From NCBI GenBank assembly GCA_965216875.1, contig OZ244207.1:1280001-1344000 (forward strand): a DNA stretch of 64,000 nucleotides. The letters run 5' to 3'. This document shows, piece by piece, positions 52,329 through 59,203 of this stretch (positions are counted from its first letter, which is position 1; every line of letters begins with the position of its first letter). The notes under the pieces were generated by a model. The model did not search any database, was not told the DNA's origin, and saw nothing but the letters and a program-made list of their open reading frames with translations. A program made the translations under genes and the position numbers. Source of the DNA: Rubripirellula sp. GTDB lineage: Bacteria > Planctomycetota > Planctomycetia > Pirellulales > Pirellulaceae.

Positions 52329-52982
52329 CTACGCCGAAGTCACTGGCATCTCGAGTGTACGAATCGCAAAGTCACCGAGGGTTGCAGACAGGCTTTGCTG
52401 CTTTCCTTCAGCGACGTAGCGGACCAGCGTTTCACTCGCCAAGACTGCCGACAGGATGGCGAGGTTCCGGGCGAGCGGGTACTCACAAACGTCGCCTTCG
52501 ACGTCGTTTGGCACTCGGTATTGGTCGTCCCAGACGACTTCACAGTAGTCTTCGAAAAGACCAACGTGCAGACACGGCATGTCAACCTTGCGTACGTGCC
52601 GCTGGACCCTTTGGCGAGATTGCGAGTTGTCAAAGGCATCAACGACGATGTCAGCCTGCTTCAAGAGCGACTTGACGTTACGATCATCAAGCTTTTTGGC
52701 GCTCGCTTCGATTTCAAGACCGACCGAGCGAAACAGCTTGGCACGCAAGATATCGACCTTGCGCGCACCAACGTCTGCGACATCGTACAACTGAGTGCTG
52801 ATGTTGTGCTCTTCGACACGGTCAAAGTCGATCACGCGCAGACGCCGAAACCCTTGGCGTAGCAAGTTGTCGACGAGGTTGGAACCGATCGCGCCGGCAC
52901 CACAGACCACAACCAATGGCTGGGCAAGGTTAGCCAGGGCCTCTTCACCTCGGTAAAGTTCTTCGTGCATCAGTGGTTTCAT
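52329..52982 (-). CDS. ThiF/MoeB/E1-like adenylyltransferase
   Basis: CGAGAIGS, DFDRVEEHNISTQLY, GARKV, DAFDN...R and candidate catalytic Cys in DVCEYP. The MoeB Zn-binding CxxC pairs are not seen. Confidence 0.9.
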   Translation of the reverse strand: MKPLMHEELYRGEEALANLAQPLVVVCGAGAIGSNLVDNLLRQGFRRLRVIDFDRVEEHNISTQLYDVADVGARKVDILRAKLFRSVGLEIEASAKKLDDRNVKSLLKQADIVVDAFDNSQSRQRVQRHVRKVDMPCLHVGLFEDYCEVVWDDQYRVPNDVEGDVCEYPLARNLAILSAVLASETLVRYVAEGKQQSLSATLGDFAIRTLEMPVTSA

Positions 52983-53135: not shown

Positions 53136-54185
53136 CTAGCGGCGGCGAGGTTGGTTTCGGCGAGGATGAATCCGCCAGTATTCCTCTTCGCTCATGCCTT
53201 CGTTTTCATCGCCAATTGCCAGCAGCGAACCGTCGTCAGAGCCTTCACGAAGGACACCGACGAGGCTTCCAAGGTCGAACTTGTGATCCTCGCCACTGAG
53301 GCAGATGCCTGCGACATGCAACGACAAGTCGCTCTTGGCGACCGACGACGTGTACCGTGCACCGTCAACGTTGAACGTGACACGGTAGCTATCGTTGCGT
53401 TCCATGTAGTCGACCAATTCGGCGCCCGCGTGGGACAACGATTCGTACAACCTTTGCTGATGCATGTCCGCGAAATGGAGTTCGTTCCTTTCCTGTGTTT
53501 CCACACGGAATTCGGAGCGACGTCCCGGTCGGTCACGCGTCCGGTTGGGTTGAGTCAGCCCCAAGTAGTTCCACTCGTATGCCGCCCGCTGCGCGGCGGT
53601 CAGTCCTGGCCGATCGAGCTCCTTGGGTGGCGTTCGCTCCAGCAGGTGTTCGCGCAGCGCCGCCGGCGCGGCCAAGTCGCCTCGCAGGACCAGCTCGTCA
53701 TACCAGAATCGAACGCCGTCAAAACGGACCGAGATCGAATCGAACAACTGCACGTCTTGGCAAAGTGCAATGGGAACGAGCCCTTGGACGTGAATGCGAC
53801 GATCGCCTTGGTGGGCAAGCGTCGCCAGCCACTGGCCCGCTTGGGTTTGGGCGTCACGCCCGACAGCCTTTTGGGTCAGGATCATCTGCAGTCGCGGGAA
53901 AAGATCGAGGTAGCTGCGTCGCTGCATGAGCGAAGCTTCACGCACCAGAACCGCTTCCCGGTGTGACAATGGCGAAAAGACGCCCCAGCCTTCGAAGTCA
54001 TCGGGGGCAACCGCTAGCGTGCACATCACGCCGGCGATGCGGACGCGCACAACGCCCCCGGCTGCGACCGGCGCAAGAAACTCGCTCTGCAAGAATTGAT
54101 TTTCCTGCTCAGCGAGTCGCTTCATCTTTTCGAAGAGGCTGGTGTTTCGCTTCATTGGAGTGGGGGTGCTTTGAGGGTTAACCAC
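53136..54185 (-). CDS. Hypothetical protein with C-terminal AGICLSGED.KFDL Cys motif
   Basis: 349-aa ORF co-oriented inside the E1/Ro60 cluster. The start may be an internal Met. Confidence 0.75.
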   Translation of the reverse strand: MVNPQSTPTPMKRNTSLFEKMKRLAEQENQFLQSEFLAPVAAGGVVRVRIAGVMCTLAVAPDDFEGWGVFSPLSHREAVLVREASLMQRRSYLDLFPRLQMILTQKAVGRDAQTQAGQWLATLAHQGDRRIHVQGLVPIALCQDVQLFDSISVRFDGVRFWYDELVLRGDLAAPAALREHLLERTPPKELDRPGLTAAQRAAYEWNYLGLTQPNRTRDRPGRRSEFRVETQERNELHFADMHQQRLYESLSHAGAELVDYMERNDSYRVTFNVDGARYTSSVAKSDLSLHVAGICLSGEDHKFDLGSLVGVLREGSDDGSLLAIGDENEGMSEEEYWRIHPRRNQPRRR

Positions 54186-54235: not shown

Positions 54236-55072
54236 CTACGACAGCGACGCTTCAATGCACAGCTGCGCCGTCAATTCCGTCGTCGTGACGGCACTTTGCA
54301 GCGTTGCGAAGTCAAACGAATCATCATCGACTCCGGCCTGATCGAGCACCTTCGTGATCGAGTCGTCGTTTAAACGCATGCCCGCTCGCAGGAAGTCACC
54401 GCCCGTCTTCTGGTAATGACGGGCCTGGGGCACACGGGTTCGCTTGAGCCAAAGGTGACTGATCACGTGATACACGTTGCCCGCGCCCCACGCGAATCGG
54501 GCGGAGACGACCGGAGCCTGGTACTTGAGCATCAACTCGTGGCTCGCCGCTTCGACTTCCACCTTGTCGTGGTCGAGCACCGCGATGGGGTAGCTTGCAG
54601 CTTCAAGCCACCATTGCGGGTCGGCGCCAAGAACAACCACGCCGCTCCACAGGCTGTCGTTGTTGGGTTCAACCCCGACTACTTCGTCAGCGCTACTGTG
54701 CCCCTTGCTGTGCGCGATCGTTCCGGGAAACGACGGCTGCACAACGGTTCTCAAGGACCAGTCGGTCGAAATGAGCCAGCCGCCGTCACGAACAAAGGGT
54801 TCCGCGTTCTTCTTCAACGCGTGACTTGCGCTACTGGAACAGTTAGCAAACAGGATCTTTGCCTTGGCGAGGCCCTTGGCACTGACTCCGGTCCGGTGCG
54901 GCACCTTGAGACGCTTGAGCACTTCTTCCGCACTGTCGTAGGTGCCCGGGTTGACGGAGACATCGTCCGCTTGCAATCGACACAACGCCTCGTGACGTTG
55001 TGGCGTTTGCAGGGCGAGTCGCTCGCGAACGGCAATTGCGGCAAGGTCATACGCCCGAGCCATCTTGTTCAT
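54236..55072 (-). CDS. Hypothetical protein, possible class I glutamine-amidotransferase-like (DUF4159-like) fold
   Basis: GTYDSAEEVL, ILFANC, FVRDGGWLISTDW and GNVYHVISH pattern. Confidence 0.6.
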   Translation of the reverse strand: MNKMARAYDLAAIAVRERLALQTPQRHEALCRLQADDVSVNPGTYDSAEEVLKRLKVPHRTGVSAKGLAKAKILFANCSSSASHALKKNAEPFVRDGGWLISTDWSLRTVVQPSFPGTIAHSKGHSSADEVVGVEPNNDSLWSGVVVLGADPQWWLEAASYPIAVLDHDKVEVEAASHELMLKYQAPVVSARFAWGAGNVYHVISHLWLKRTRVPQARHYQKTGGDFLRAGMRLNDDSITKVLDQAGVDDDSFDFATLQSAVTTTELTAQLCIEASLS

Positions 55073-55138
55073 GATCTGTAGTTTCCTTTTTGTTTGATTG
55101 TTGGGTTAGGGTCTGAGGGCTCACAGACATTCTTCTTC

Positions 55139-55297
55139 CTCGTTCCCAAGCTCTGCGTGGAAACGCACTCTCGGACGCTCCGCGTCCCCTTAGGCGTGCG
55201 GGCCGCAGAGCGGCAAGTCGTCTGTTCCCACGCGGAGCGAGGGAACAAGAGCCGTGAGCCTGAACTCGGAACGCCCGTCATGCGGAGCATGACCTAC
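55139..55297. repeat. REP-like elements (CTCGTTCCCAAGCTCTGCGTGG.. family and GTCATGCGGAGCATGACCTAC)
   Basis: Palindromic units. The last unit is identical to that at 5742-5762. Confidence 0.7.
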
Positions 55298-55375
55298 GAA
55301 AAGGCGCTCAAAAGTGCCGCTGCCCGATTCGTTTGAAAGGGGCAGCGGCATCGTGTTGCTCATGCACTTGCTCGC

Positions 55376-56980
55376 TCACGCACTCTTTCGAGCGGGAAGC
55401 GGGAAGTCCATGATTTCCATCAACAGCTCGAGCTTGCTTGGTCGCGAGAGCATTGGGATCAAGTTCGGCAACGAGTAGTAGTCGCCCGAGAACTGGAAGA
55501 TGTCGATCGGGATCTTTTCCCGTCCGCACAACTTTTCCAGGTAGCTGCTGCCACCCGGCGTACGAACGATAAAGAGCGACGGATCGCACTTCATGGTTTC
55601 TCGGTATTCACGCAATGCCGTCACGAAGGGCGGCGGCGTGTTCTCTTCCTCGTCGGTGATCATGATGATCTGCTCAACATAGATCTCCTTCATCGTCAGT
55701 GCCTTGATGGCAACGCCACACGACGTGCATCCGCCTGCGGTGATGCCTTCCATCGCACGTTCCCAATCAGCCAAGCTCTGACCTTCCGGAACGATCGGGT
55801 AGGGCACGGTATCGAAGGCGAACGTGTAAAGCTCGCTTTCGCAAACGGCCGAGATCATCGCACCGATCCGCTTACCCAACTCGATTGCCTGTTCCATCGA
55901 AGACGACTTGTCGATCAACAGCGCCGTTGGACGCTTGATTCGACCCTTCGCCTTGACTTGTGCATCGGCAACTTCGTCAAGTTGGTCACGGAGTGCACCG
56001 TCGACGCCCGTCGCTTCGATTGCCTTCTTGGCCTTGAAAGCACTCACACGACTTGCGTTCTTGGCGTCACCCAGCTTTGCCTCAACCAATTCCTTGATCT
56101 CGGGGACATTCATTGCGCCTCGACGCTTGAGCATTCCCAGGTTGTTGATCAATTCCTGTGGGCTCATCTGATCGACGAGTGCCAACAGGACCGTTGGCGT
56201 CATCTGGTGAATCACCGTCGACGCGATTCGGTAAGGAATTCGGTGCTGAACGATGGCCTCCGCCTGTTCGGCTGGACTCTTGGCTTGCGCGAGAACGCGC
56301 AGCGCGTAGAGTCGGCTGTCAGGAGGTGGTTGATCGTCGAACAGAATCTGCTGAGCGCGGTCGCCAGGCTTGATGTGCAGCAAAGCGTAAAGACGCTTCA
56401 TTGCCTTTCGAGCTGCCAGCACGCTACCATCGAACCAATCGTCGTCCGCTTCACGTTCTCGCAAGTAACGCGTGATTTCGGTCTTCATTGCGCGCGGAAC
56501 GTTACGGAACAGTCCGAATTGCTCGGTGATCGTTTCGGCATCGCTCGGCTTTGCCTTAGACTTCGTTGAAGCCTTGGCAGTCGTGCCGAGGACTTGACGT
56601 GCGACATCGCGACGCCCCTTGCGGGAAGCCTGTGCAAGGGCCTTGGCCTTTTCACCCTTGCGAATCTTGCGCGTCTTCTTGACACCCGAGATGAAGTTGA
56701 CAACGCGAATCACCTGGTAAGGAGGCAGTTCACGCAACATCGCCAAACCGACTTCGCGGTGTCCCGAGAAGTCCGAAAGGACCAAGTTGATGATGAACAT
56801 TTCCTTGTGGTCGCGCACGTCGCCACTCTCGCTGTACCAAGCACCAAGACGCACGTAGAAACGCGGGTCCTTGGTGATCAGGTCCGAGTGGACTTGCCAA
56901 ATCGATTCGAGGTCTCGGTGGGGCGTCGTCAACAGGGTGTTGAGGATGCCAAGTCGAAGATCCTGTTCCGTCGTTACCAT
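55376..56980 (-). CDS. Ro60/TROVE-like RNA-binding protein with C-terminal vWA domain (divergent Rsr homolog)
   Basis: 534 aa with a helical, basic N-terminal region (DPRFY..L..W...VRD, ..LINNLGML). C-terminal vWA MIDAS (IDKSSSM, GGCT, ITDEEEN). Flanked upstream by Y-RNA-like elements. Confidence 0.7.
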   Translation of the reverse strand: MVTTEQDLRLGILNTLLTTPHRDLESIWQVHSDLITKDPRFYVRLGAWYSESGDVRDHKEMFIINLVLSDFSGHREVGLAMLRELPPYQVIRVVNFISGVKKTRKIRKGEKAKALAQASRKGRRDVARQVLGTTAKASTKSKAKPSDAETITEQFGLFRNVPRAMKTEITRYLREREADDDWFDGSVLAARKAMKRLYALLHIKPGDRAQQILFDDQPPPDSRLYALRVLAQAKSPAEQAEAIVQHRIPYRIASTVIHQMTPTVLLALVDQMSPQELINNLGMLKRRGAMNVPEIKELVEAKLGDAKNASRVSAFKAKKAIEATGVDGALRDQLDEVADAQVKAKGRIKRPTALLIDKSSSMEQAIELGKRIGAMISAVCESELYTFAFDTVPYPIVPEGQSLADWERAMEGITAGGCTSCGVAIKALTMKEIYVEQIIMITDEEENTPPPFVTALREYRETMKCDPSLFIVRTPGGSSYLEKLCGREKIPIDIFQFSGDYYSLPNLIPMLSRPSKLELLMEIMDFPLPARKSA

Positions 56981-57013
56981 TGCTGCGATTCATCTCCTGG
57001 GAAGAAAGGGGAT

Positions 57014-57102
57014 CGCGGTCATGCAACGTGCAATGCAACGCACCACCATGAGTCGGCAGAGTTACCGACGCAAATGAAGTGTTTCGTGCGTGCGCGACCG
57101 CG
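57014..57102 (-). ncRNA. Candidate structured RNA (Y-RNA-like terminal stem, no tRNA arms)
   Basis: Minus-strand 5' CGCGGUCGCGCA pairs with 3' UGCAUGACCGCG, with internal hairpin GUCGG..CCGAC. Confidence 0.35.
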
Positions 57103-57115
57103 TTGAAAAACGATG

Positions 57116-57205
57116 CGGGTCAAGCCGAGTCGCGCTGGGACTCAAAGAGAACGAGTGACTCAAAGAGAATAATGTGCGCCGTGTGATCGACTCTTGCCGC
57201 GACCG
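57116..57205 (-). ncRNA. Candidate Y RNA (YrlB-like, pyrimidine-rich loop)
   Basis: Minus-strand 5' CGGUCGCGGCAAGAGUCG pairs with 3' CGACUCGGCUUGACCCG, which includes the Y-RNA 3' motif CUUGAC. The loop carries UUCUCUUUGAGUC twice. Confidence 0.45.
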
Positions 57206-57250
57206 AGGGCCGCAAAATCGATTGACGGCCGTCGAGTCAAGCTAAGAGAA

Positions 57251-57390
57251 ATTGTCCGTACAAGTTGCGAGAGCCATGACTCTCCCAGGGTGTTTCATTC
57301 TTGAAAGCGGGAGAGGAAGGATTCGAACCTTCGACAGGAGTTTCCCCCAGTCTTGCCGTTTGTATGCTCGTACCATTGGGTACGGACAAT
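57251..57390 (-). ncRNA. Y-RNA-like (YrlA-like) tRNA mimic, copy 3 (no D arm, GNRA hairpin in place of anticodon arm)
   Basis: 11-bp terminal stem AUUGUCCGUAC/GUACGGACAAU, T arm GAAGG-UUCGAAU-CCUUC and acceptor-like stem CUCUCCC/GGGAGAG. Confidence 0.75.
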
Positions 57391-57498
57391 GGGTTGGTAT
57401 TGGATGCAGCGGCGGTGGTTTTTGAATCGATCATTGAATTGCTGCTGCCTCCTAAACTGATAGAGACGCGTGTGCTAGGAAATCGAACCAAGAAAAAT

Positions 57499-57663
57499 TC
57501 CCGTACAAGTCACCAAAGCGATCAAAACAAAGTGCTCTGCCAATTGAGCTACTGGCCGTTTGGGTTGCCGAATTGCAACGGCGAGTCGGCCAGGAAGGAT
57601 TCGAACCCTCAACCACTCCATTAACAATGGTTAGTTTGTAAGCTTCTGTCGTTGGGTACGGGA
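57499..57663 (-). ncRNA. Y-RNA-like (YrlA-like) circularly permuted tRNA mimic, copy 2 (anticodon-like loop GUU)
   Basis: Terminal stem UCCCGUAC/GUACGGGA. In order: loop UUGUUAA, T arm GAGGG-UUCGAAU-CCUUC, acceptor CUGGCCG/CGGCCAG closed by a loop, D arm UA-GCUC-AAUUGGCA-GAGC. Confidence 0.85.
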
Positions 57664-57710
57664 TGGATCAAGGATCTCTTTGTGTGGTTTGGTGTTGAAA
57701 CGTTCGAGGT

Positions 57711-57859
57711 GCCGTACAAGTCGCTCAAGCGCGAAACTAAGTGCTCTGCCAACTGAGCTACAACGGCGGCGTTATCGTGAAGCGCCGTTGGCGGGACTCG
57801 AACCCGCGGCCTCTTCCTTCAGAGGGAGTTGTTTGTAGGCTTGTTTCGTTGGGTACGGC
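57711..57859 (-). ncRNA. Y-RNA-like (YrlA-like) circularly permuted tRNA mimic, copy 1 (anticodon-like loop CUG)
   Basis: Terminal stem GCCGUAC/GUACGGC. In order: loop CUCUGAA, T arm GCGGG-UUCGAGU-CCCGC, acceptor CAACGGC/GCCGUUG closed by a loop, D arm UA-GCUC-AGUUGGCA-GAGC. Confidence 0.85.
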
Positions 57860-57895
57860 CCAAGAACGAATTCGCTTTGCCGGAAAGACGTTTCG

Positions 57896-58123
57896 TTAAC
57901 CGAAGACGGCTTCCGGACGCAGAGTCAAATTGCCTGTTTGATGTCGGTCGACAACGTAATGGACAAACTTGGCCTGCGCAACGTCCAGGTAAGTCGCCAA
58001 TGCTGACTTGACATCTTGGTCGCTTGACATTGTTCCAACGTCAAGGTCGGCCATGGGGATGTCCCAGCTTCGGCCATCAAACCGGACGTGAAGGACCGGT
58101 GCATTTTGAGTTGCTGCAACCAT
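57896..58123 (-). CDS. Small putative ubiquitin-like (beta-grasp) protein ending in Gly
   Basis: 75 aa with a GGAGG RBS. Beta-beta-alpha-beta-beta pattern and terminal strand LTLRPEAVFG*. An E1-like gene lies in the same cluster. Confidence 0.65.
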   Translation of the reverse strand: MVAATQNAPVLHVRFDGRSWDIPMADLDVGTMSSDQDVKSALATYLDVAQAKFVHYVVDRHQTGNLTLRPEAVFG

Positions 58124-58239
58124 GATCACCTCCAAACTTGAAAAAACTTCAACAACGTGATGCGTTGTTTGTTGAAGTAAAAGACAGGGCTGGGCAAAGG
58201 AGGTTCGCGAGAATTGTGGTGGTGCGACTTGCCAGTTTG

Positions 58240-58297
58240 TAGTACCGGCTTCAGCCGGATTGGCCTGAAGATTCCGGCTGAAGCCGGTACTACGAAC
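58240..58297. repeat. GTAG-type REP doublet
   Basis: GTAGTACCGGCTTCAGCCGG ... CCGGCTGAAGCCGGTACTAC perfect inverted pair. Confidence 0.8.
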
Positions 58298-58306
58298 GGC
58301 GCTTCG

Positions 58307-59203
58307 CTACGGTCGCGTTGCGACGGCGTCGTGAATCACCTTCAAGATTCGCTCGCGTTCTTCGCCCACCAGCGGCATTCGTGGCGCTCGCACTCGCTCG
58401 CTACCGAACCCGAGTTCGCTGCAAGTGAGTTTGATGTACTGAACCAGTTTGGGGTGGCTGTCAAAGTGCAGCAGTGGCATGTACCAACGGTAAACCGCGA
58501 GCGCTTTGGCGTAGTCACCTGCCATTGCAGCGTCCCACAGCAGGCGGTTTTCGCGTGGGAACGCATCGACGAGTCCAGAAATCCAACCGGTGCAACCAAG
58601 CAGGATGCTCTCGAGGGCAACATCGTCTAAGCCCGAAAAGATGAGGTAGCGATCTCCGAGCGCGTTGAACAAATCGGTGATGCGCCGGACGTCGCCCGAT
58701 GCTTCTTTGATGCAAACGATGTTTTCGACATCGGCCATTTCCTGGAACATTTCTGGCGTGATGTCGACGCGATAGACGGGCGGGTTGTTGTAGCACATGA
58801 TCGGCAAACGGGTTGAGTTTGCGACCGTGCGAAAATGATTGACGGTCTCTCGGCCGTCGGAGTTGTAGACCATGCCCGGCATGACCATCAAACCGTCAAG
58901 GCCAACCTCTTGGCAAACGGCCGCGGTTTCGCATGCGTTCTTTGTCGTGAACTCAGCCACGCCGCTGAGGATAGGAACCTTGCCACCGGCAACGTCGACT
59001 GTTGTCTTGAGGACTTCACGTTTTTCGTCGAGCGAGAGCGAGCAGTTTTCGCCGATCGTTCCGAGCATGACCAAACCGTGGACTCCACCATCAAGCAGGG
59101 CTTCGACGTGTTGGGCGGTCGCTTCAAGATCGAGTGAGAAATCGTCTTTGAATTGCGTGGGGACGGCGGGGAAAACTCCCTGCCAATCAACTTGCATGGG
59201 CAT
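58307..59203 (-). CDS. Dihydrodipicolinate synthase-family lyase (probably hydroxyproline-pathway deaminase type rather than DapA)
   Basis: WQGVFPAVPTQF, GTIGEN, YNNPP.Y, IKEASGD and KLVQYIKL. Confidence 0.85.
   Translation of the reverse strand: MPMQVDWQGVFPAVPTQFKDDFSLDLEATAQHVEALLDGGVHGLVMLGTIGENCSLSLDEKREVLKTTVDVAGGKVPILSGVAEFTTKNACETAAVCQEVGLDGLMVMPGMVYNSDGRETVNHFRTVANSTRLPIMCYNNPPVYRVDITPEMFQEMADVENIVCIKEASGDVRRITDLFNALGDRYLIFSGLDDVALESILLGCTGWISGLVDAFPRENRLLWDAAMAGDYAKALAVYRWYMPLLHFDSHPKLVQYIKLTCSELGFGSERVRAPRMPLVGEERERILKVIHDAVATRP

Follow-up and report, generated by a model that had tools for sequence, protein, structure and literature searches.

Bacterial Ro60 particles and the ubiquitin-like operons of bacteria are the described systems closest to the locus reported here. 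In Rsr/YrlA systems the RNAs are encoded upstream of Ro60, and a terminal stem that serves as protein-binding module is combined with an effector module (PMC4201824). Several such RNAs (YrlA, YrlB, Yrn1) may lie a few kb upstream of the gene for the bacterial Ro60 (Rsr) on the same strand. YrlA is permuted in such a way that the T arm is followed by a closed acceptor stem and then by the D arm, with a YUAY-like motif ahead of the tRNA part, and it is characterized as an RNA that 'lacks the anticodon loop' (bioRxiv 10.1101/312249). In many YrlAs, Chen et al. noted that the T arm is preceded by a 'V' stem-loop of lower conservation. The binding partner of the tRNA-like part in bacterial Y RNAs is posed as a question in the discussion of PMC4201824. 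A phage-borne Ro60 particle is known from phage phiLo, where Ro60 occurs together with Yrl1 and Yrl2, requires a CGAA motif in its RNA and has been proposed to act against host defence (PMC12135203). The patchily distributed Bil and Bub operons, on the other hand, encode a ubiquitin-like protein (Ubl) ending with Gly, an E1, a JAB peptidase and a candidate E2, and the Bil E2 has been proposed to choose its targets directly (PMC11601596).

The locus that we describe was found in the window, i.e. the whole 64,000-nucleotide stretch of Rubripirellula sp. DNA under study, and it shares features with each of these systems. Several RNAs are situated a few kb upstream of a Ro60-like gene and share its strand, their tRNA-like parts are permuted as in YrlA and follow a YUAY-like motif, relatives occur on phages as in phiLo, and the linked genes resemble those of Bil and Bub. 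The differences are equally clear. Unlike Rsr, the protein shares no more than 14-17% identity with solved Ro60s and is TROVE-negative in Pfam, and its loci are linked to Ubl, E1 and JAB genes instead of RtcB. Unlike YrlA, the RNAs carry GYNC-CCNA and not GNCGAA as 5' motif, both strands of their stem are conserved, and an anticodon arm may be retained whole; across the family four permutations occur, along with bare anticodon loops and 23S rRNA copies. The phiLo particle differs by its CGAA motif and its PNPase partner, and the available text of that report mentions neither ubiquitin-like genes nor an rRNA mimic (PMC12135203). Bil and Bub operons, as far as they are described in the accessible part of PMC11601596, have no RNA or Ro60 component, and Bub uses Tyr and Ser, whereas the operon described here keeps Cys in both enzymes. 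A combination of Ro60 with Ubl, E1 and JAB, or a Y RNA bearing an anticodon arm or an rRNA insert, was not described in the literature covered by our search, which had several key reviews outside its reach.

Results

Three RNA units and their Ro60-like neighbour

The following features form the core of the locus:

57711..57859, minus strand: RNA A, handle plus permuted tRNA body (anticodon arm, T arm, closed acceptor stem, D arm)
57815..57827, minus strand: anticodon-like arm of RNA A, loop CUCUGAA (predicted anticodon CUG, Gln)
57499..57663, minus strand: RNA B, handle plus permuted tRNA body in the same order as RNA A, the acceptor loop bearing an additional hairpin
57618..57630, minus strand: anticodon-like arm of RNA B, loop UUGUUAA (predicted anticodon GUU, Asn)
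57251..57390, minus strand: RNA C, handle plus stem-loop stacked on the T arm and closed acceptor stem, without D arm
55376..56980, minus strand: divergent Ro60/TROVE-vWA ring protein of 534 aa with intact MIDAS site, assigned by profile and fold searches

Sequence inspection confirmed the three units at the positions and on the minus strand given in the original prediction; both anticodons are read from the sequence. Each unit begins with CCGUACCCAA and finishes with ACUUGUACGG. As also predicted, the outer pair varies while pairing is kept, the first pair of the 7-bp core being G-C in A, C-G in B and U-A in C, and AGCNUACAAAC, the 3' GCU and the T arm are common to all of them. The claimed homology of the units applies, according to the alignment, to the two end blocks and the T arm, whereas the middles differ. 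We refer to the two shared end blocks as the handle, and the insert lies between its halves. Unpaired C residues do exist in the terminal helix, not as a single-C bulge but as an internal loop with CCNA opposite ACUY. Regarding tRNA-like content, the T arm had been recognized correctly, but the anticodon arms, the rRNA-like inserts of relatives and the ubiquitin-like genes had been overlooked. Folding z-scores of -1.9 (A), -3.1 (B) and -3.7 (C) were obtained, with the terminal helix closed in all three.

The suggested Rfam search revealed a YrlA (RF02553) signal for two units, though only 39.5 bits were reached in B and 34.1 bits in A against a gathering threshold of 69 bits, and no match for C; the scores of relatives (26-39 bits) are likewise under the threshold. 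A and B show the YrlA order of T arm, closed acceptor stem and D arm, and their acceptor stems comprise 7 bp. RNA C is without D arm, and its insert type recurs among relatives. In place of the YrlA 5' motif GNCGAAN0-1G, all three units have GUACCCAA, and A and B possess canonical 7-nt anticodon loops, the element whose absence characterizes YrlA. Hence, the RNAs resemble parts of the Ro60-Y RNA particle, yet they depart from YrlA in score, 5' motif and anticodon loop. The YrlA 'V' stem-loop may be the same anticodon element that went unrecognized. ARAGORN made zero tRNA calls over the window, and no sigma-70-like promoter was found at 55000-58400. Explanations of the units as chance repeat, terminator or tRNA gene were ruled out by ARAGORN, by the counts in genome and shuffled sequences and by covariation. 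Between the genes, imperfect inverted repeats occur at window positions 55130-55300 and 58240-58300, which are probably REP-like elements.

The assignment of the neighbouring protein to the Ro60 fold was corroborated by two approaches. A profile built from 95 family sequences returned human Ro60 (E=2.6e-17) as well as Xenopus Ro60, phage phiLo Ro60 and Deinococcus Rsr, with phiLo Ro60 as best full-length match (positions 24-394). The AlphaFold model of the 534-aa protein (pLDDT 92.7) gave Foldseek hits whose top 12 rows were all Ro60 (E 5e-12 to 5e-10, TM 0.54-0.60, 510-580 columns) at 14-17% identity to solved structures. The family profile was needed to reach Ro60 in the PDB, where the single sequence found no match. 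Pfam TROVE (PF05731) matched 0 of the 95 family members and nothing in the Rubripirellula genome, with a positive Deinococcus control, and the 534-aa ORF matched vWA_Ro60 below threshold only. The MIDAS signature DxSxS...T...D is almost completely preserved, with D357, S359, S361 and D443 in 95/95 and T419 in 94/95 sequences. Four RNA-contacting basic residues were taken from phage Ro60 (PMC12135203). In an HMM alignment with hand-derived offset, K141 corresponds to K166 (K/R in 82/95) and R178 to K204 (K/R in 64/95), R137 is placed one residue off R163 (R/K in 73/95), and K142 aligns with T167. Longer Ro60-like proteins of 820-880 aa are encoded at L004:499-3147, L067:5089-7548 and L068:5107-7593; they have about 300 extra N-terminal residues belonging to no Pfam family, and no handle RNA was detected by pattern at the latter two loci.

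The handle defines an RNA family

Searching both strands of the 8.26-Mb genome with the strict handle pattern yielded four sites, namely A, B, C and one orphan. The orphan (C1:2482555-2482691; L114:6556-6692) is located 1.1 Mb away from the operon, shows the normal D-anticodon-T order and is named tRNA-Gly(TCC) by ARAGORN; no operon gene was found beside it among ORFs of at least 100 aa. With a slightly looser pattern, 192 matches were obtained in real loci compared with 2 in 5.74 Mb of shuffled sequence (five rounds). The matches are spread over 75 of the 112 sequences scanned (a set without L001, L006 and the duplicate L011), and all except one (191/192) are on the Ro60 strand. The expectation that homologs occur near TROVE-like genes was thereby borne out, with handle RNAs on the same strand beside Ro60 relatives in 63/79 genome loci and 8/23 viral loci.

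The inner four pairs of the handle are GUAC/GUAC (50), GCGC/GCGC (36), GCAC/GUGC (25), GUGC/GCAC (22), GUCC/GGAC (16) or GUCU/AGAC (6), and since pairing was demanded by the search pattern, only the variety of pair types represents evidence. The loop variants among the 192 RNAs are CCAA (77), CCUA (54), CCCA (40) and CCGA (21). A covariation test turned out positively in an alignment of 45 A/B-class sequences, which were picked from 65 with T-acceptor-D order plus 27 related ones: 96.2% of cells pair, and the covariation value of 0.52 compares with at most 0.11 in slid controls. Both-sided changes were observed in 24/34 pairs and, within the acceptor stem that had been selected by no filter, in 7/7 pairs. 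Hence, the three units belong to a real, covarying RNA family. The position of the handle and the likeness of CCNA/CUYG to the CGAA motif are consistent with a role as Ro60-binding site. The family was missed or mislabelled because the Pfam TROVE and Rfam thresholds are blind to it and ARAGORN labels 26 handle RNAs as tRNAs.

tRNA-like inserts

The proposal of interchangeable modules is upheld well beyond what the window shows, with a constant handle and a variable insert across the 192 RNAs. The class counts are approximate, because some tRNA inserts of normal order were assigned by the classifier to other classes: 43 inserts show the order anticodon-T-acceptor-D (A and B among them; 25 with canonical loop), 19 are D-anticodon-T with the handle replacing the acceptor stem, 5 are T-acceptor-D-anticodon, 22 are T-acceptor-D in which no anticodon arm was found, 51 have a T arm without detected D arm (C among them), and 52/192 are without T arm. 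Altogether four tRNA permutations occur among the relatives.

The 7-nt loops at the anticodon position obey the Y32-U33-R37 rule in 57/90 cases (null mean 7.8, maximum 17 in 2000 trials), and these canonical loops give 30 anticodons, which differ within all 20 of the 20 loci that have at least two U33 loops. Short inserts without T arm hold a canonical anticodon stem-loop in 12/38 cases (null mean 0.2, maximum 3), and some of them consist of nothing more than this bare stem-loop. The remaining 33/90 loops are non-canonical, and anticodons beginning with A were seen (AGU, AAU, AAC, AGA, AAA), which are rare in bacterial tRNAs. These non-canonical loops and odd anticodons would fit drift as part of the picture as well as selection.

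Other insert types were also noticed. A long stem that precedes the T arm and contains a conserved symmetric GUG/GAG internal loop recurs at L009:5345-5493, L008:4352-4487, L012:4960-5109, L013:655-807 and L017:5549-5687. Multi-hairpin inserts without T arm are present at L081:5622-5765, L082:5695-5819 and L029:4091-4234, the last of which opens with a helix-69-like stretch. Moreover, the Rubripirellula genome contains two large arrays made up of divergent tRNA genes (C1:591000-608012 and 628016-632638; about 48 ARAGORN calls) separate from the housekeeping set, and a tRNA with anticodon CUA and ordinary body at C1:3282034-3282109, called Pyl by ARAGORN, which is possibly an amber suppressor or another mimic.

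rRNA-like inserts in relatives

In L070, L076 and L077 the insert opens with 12-14 bases of host 23S rRNA positions 2651-2664, which we take to be the sarcin-ricin loop (SRL), followed by a copy of positions ~1060-1148 (in the narrower match 1070-1142), presumably the uL11-binding GTPase centre. The two sites are distant in the 23S sequence and neighbours on the ribosome. Two such inserts searched with Rfam both matched LSU rRNA (E=2e-11 and 1.5e-9), slightly below the cut-off. Other inserts copy 23S positions 1908-1938, which we regard as helix 69-70, as detected by alignment in L012, L014 and L073 and by eye in L071 and L029. A second segment resembling helix 67-68 received support in 2/5 of these H69 inserts (1 and 4 of 300 shuffles), the remaining three giving none.

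A metagenome scan with a pattern that contained the SRL and part of the handle, leaving the GTPase centre and gene linkage unselected, gave at least 120 matches, of which 80 were taken and 73 are distinct. Among the matches listed, the GTPase-centre part is present in 49/73 (null maximum 28 versus cut-off 36) and the full strict handle in 27/73, 26 of them with GTPase centre. An operon gene lies within 4 kb in 21/73 of the matches listed, and among the handle-bearing SRL RNAs listed, 14/27 have no operon gene within that distance. The viral collection yielded 0 matches when scanned for the handle-SRL and handle-H69 patterns, and no rRNA insert is present within the window. Mimics of 16S rRNA, 5S rRNA and tmRNA were not convincing beyond T-arm matches, the 16S gene ends being approximate. 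In four cyanobacterial arrays an extra ribosomal L7/L12 gene was found (L071:5169, L073:4899, L076:4977, L081:5190). These copies adjoin a protein of 230-240 aa and often also a GNAT acetyltransferase.

Ubiquitin-like genes and the operon

The other genes of the operon in the window are:

57896..58123, minus strand: candidate ubiquitin-like protein (Ubl), 75 aa, ending with RPEAVFG
54236..55072, minus strand: accessory protein, 278 aa, of no named family, present in 5/79 genome loci
53136..54149, minus strand: cysteine protein, 337 aa, with N-terminal OB folds, C-terminal alpha/beta domain and invariant Cys283; E2 candidate
52329..52982, minus strand: ThiF/E1-like adenylating enzyme (Pfam ThiF E=4.6e-28) with conserved Cys166

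Ubl relatives exist at 71 loci, and H12, G17, R69, P70 and G75 are invariant in 36 sequences. The terminal Gly is invariant too; in some phage copies one, two or a few residues trail it, which could be trimmed by JAB. No match was found for the Ubl in Pfam, NCBIfam and PDB sequences, and the ESM Atlas provided unnamed clusters only. The E1 is a minimal adenylation domain of 217 aa, whose Cys166 lies late in the chain and is kept in at least 90% of 49 aligned rows. JAB was above the Prok-JAB cut-off in 2/3 relatives tested and is present in 35 loci; a search with one query did not find it in the Rubripirellula genome, the window included.

The Cys of the cysteine protein is conserved in 66/68 sequences within an invariant G-x-C-L. 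It is preceded by a helix and four strands and followed by a helix, an order that presumably resembles UBC folds. This topology together with a motif makes the protein an E2 candidate; neither sequence nor structure searches found an E2 fold, and their matches were dominated by the OB domains. Foldseek returned nothing at E<=0.001, with proteasomal ATPases and RNase II-type nucleases in the best rows, matched by their tandem OB domains, VIA-align gave OB folds at residues 84-159 (best Z 6.6), and the ESM Atlas contained no usable match. A repeat adhesin suggested by PDB profiles for the whole protein and its C-terminal part was dismissed as chance on account of weak single-domain scores. The N-terminal helix with tandem OB folds bears a weak similarity to the substrate-entry domain of Mpa/ARC (Foldseek E about 5e-3).

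The predicted complex of Ro60 and the cysteine protein scored 0.55 versus 0.00 for the best control, with contacts agreeing to at least 41% and partner pLDDT of at least 65. In the benchmark the mark was passed by 116/157 solved and 2/215 mismatched complexes, and values of 0.60 or lower were shared by 18 solved complexes and both mismatches, so that the model suggests a contact between the two proteins weakly.

The usual gene order is Ubl, RNAs, Ro60, optional accessory gene, cysteine protein, JAB and E1. The 79 genome loci, many truncated by contig ends, contain RNAs in 63, Ubl in 48, cysteine protein in 45, E1 in 42 and JAB in 21 cases, and the corresponding numbers for the 23 viral loci are 8, 21, 21, 14 and 14. 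The Ro60 family is patchy, occurring in 5/301 genomes of the phylum including the present one, and it is represented in Planctomycetota, Chloroflexota, Cyanobacteria and others as well as on viral contigs of up to 572 kb. No sulfur-transfer enzyme was found among the recurring neighbours, and PADLOC models did not match Ro60, Ubl or cysteine protein.

Discussion

How might an array of tRNA- and rRNA-like RNAs cooperate with ubiquitin-like genes? The same handle is joined to modules ranging from tRNA bodies to anticodon loops and 23S sites, which points to a display of the translation surface. The sites mimicked by the inserts are those recognized by anticodon nucleases, ribotoxins and translation factors. 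We propose that the RNAs serve as baits in an RNA-guided ubiquitin-like tagging machine, a reading to which we assign a probability of roughly 40%. Accordingly worded as a sequence of events, the operon would be transcribed and the RNAs excised, each closed by its handle. The Ro60 ring would hold the handle, a step for which homology argues well, and thereby permit one protein to carry any insert. The insert, judged by its sequence likeness to anticodon arm, tRNA elbow, SRL with GTPase centre or helix 69-70, would then show a translation surface and trap the protein recognizing it, most likely a toxin or defence enzyme that cuts or modifies RNA. The E1 would activate the Gly-ended protein and, using its Cys, hand it over to the cysteine protein. 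The latter, docked on Ro60, would join the tag to the captured protein and inactivate or mark it, and JAB would trim the tag or take it off. In bacteria such a machine might protect translation, and in large phages it might counter host defences that cut tRNA or rRNA. Of the accounts that also cover the fixed association with Ubl, E1 and JAB, RNA-baited tagging is the simplest. The bait function is further favoured because the inserts differ within an array, the loci are mobile and patchy, and large phages carry them. The more specific version, a programmable ligase in which Ro60 and handle RNA together act as E3 and the exchangeable insert picks the protein to be tagged, is put forward more tentatively. 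Against the RNAs as baits stand the orphan RNA, the SRL RNAs without operon gene within 4 kb, the RNA-poor viral loci, the window in which JAB was not found, the non-canonical loops and A-initial anticodons, the missing family match of the Ubl and the lack of an E2 fold match in searches dominated by OB domains.

Other explanations account for parts of these data. The Ro60 particle might be a platform for RNA repair or modification on which damaged tRNA or rRNA is held or the mimic is offered as cofactor, with the Ubl cascade modifying RNA or a repair enzyme under translational stress. Canonical Ro60 has been described as an RNA repair platform with a tRNA-like partner (PMC7824862), at least three ordinary tRNA genes lie within 6 kb in 17/102 loci, the RNA 2'-phosphotransferase KptA recurs in 3 loci, and OB folds such as those of the cysteine protein often bind RNA. 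However, no RNA ligase was found among neighbour clusters present in at least 4 loci, and bare anticodon loops and inserts copying factor-binding sites of the ribosome would be left unexplained; we consider repair unlikely. Ranking behind it in our estimate, Ro60 might merely stabilize RNAs that absorb nucleases or titrate elongation factors, synthetases or uL11, while the Ubl genes hit some other target. The whole mimicry evidence is compatible with such passive decoys or regulators, as are the orphan RNAs and the many phage loci with Ubl genes in which no RNAs were detected, but in phages as in the various phyla the usual position of the RNAs is between the Ubl gene and the Ro60 gene, and the weakly predicted contact of Ro60 with the cysteine protein also speaks for a connection.

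The RNAs might instead tether Ro60 to PNPase or another ribonuclease for the decay of structured RNA, with the tRNA fold providing stability. This function has been shown for Y RNAs of Deinococcus, Salmonella and phage phiLo (PMC4201824, PMC12135203), and it would suit the weak YrlA match of A and B and the about 22 relatives with T-acceptor-D order in which no anticodon arm was found. Canonical anticodon loops and rRNA copies are not needed for stability, however, 52/192 inserts are without T arm, and nothing would account for the fixed association with Ubl, E1 and JAB; we regard a tether of this kind as quite improbable. Least probable, in our opinion, are permuted tRNA precursors that mature to working tRNAs, or drifting relics of a decaying tRNA array. 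The 7-bp acceptor stems of A and B would agree with precursors, given that a YrlA of M. smegmatis with such a stem is reported to be cut by RNase P and to gain CCA, and so would the tRNA calls for 26 handle RNAs and the often adjacent tRNA arrays. Maturation would nevertheless require handle removal at four different positions, rRNA pieces foreign to tRNA are found among the inserts, and compensatory change affects all 7 pairs of the acceptor helix, which was not selected by any filter.

If the RNAs indeed act as baits, bacteria and giant phages would trap translation-attacking enzymes with bait arrays, and swapping the insert would retarget the tag. Provided that the Ubl genes choose their targets via the ribonucleoprotein, this would represent RNA-directed protein tagging. 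The natural mini-copies of SRL plus GTPase centre and of helix 69-70 deserve attention on their own account. The small number of viral handle RNAs can be explained in two ways: either the handle diverges there, or the tagging genes function without RNA. In the large-phage loci L090-L094 and L103-L108, Ubl, Ro60, cysteine protein, JAB and E1 are kept, with few or no handle RNAs found by pattern. Three large-phage copies adjoin a WGR-PARP gene.
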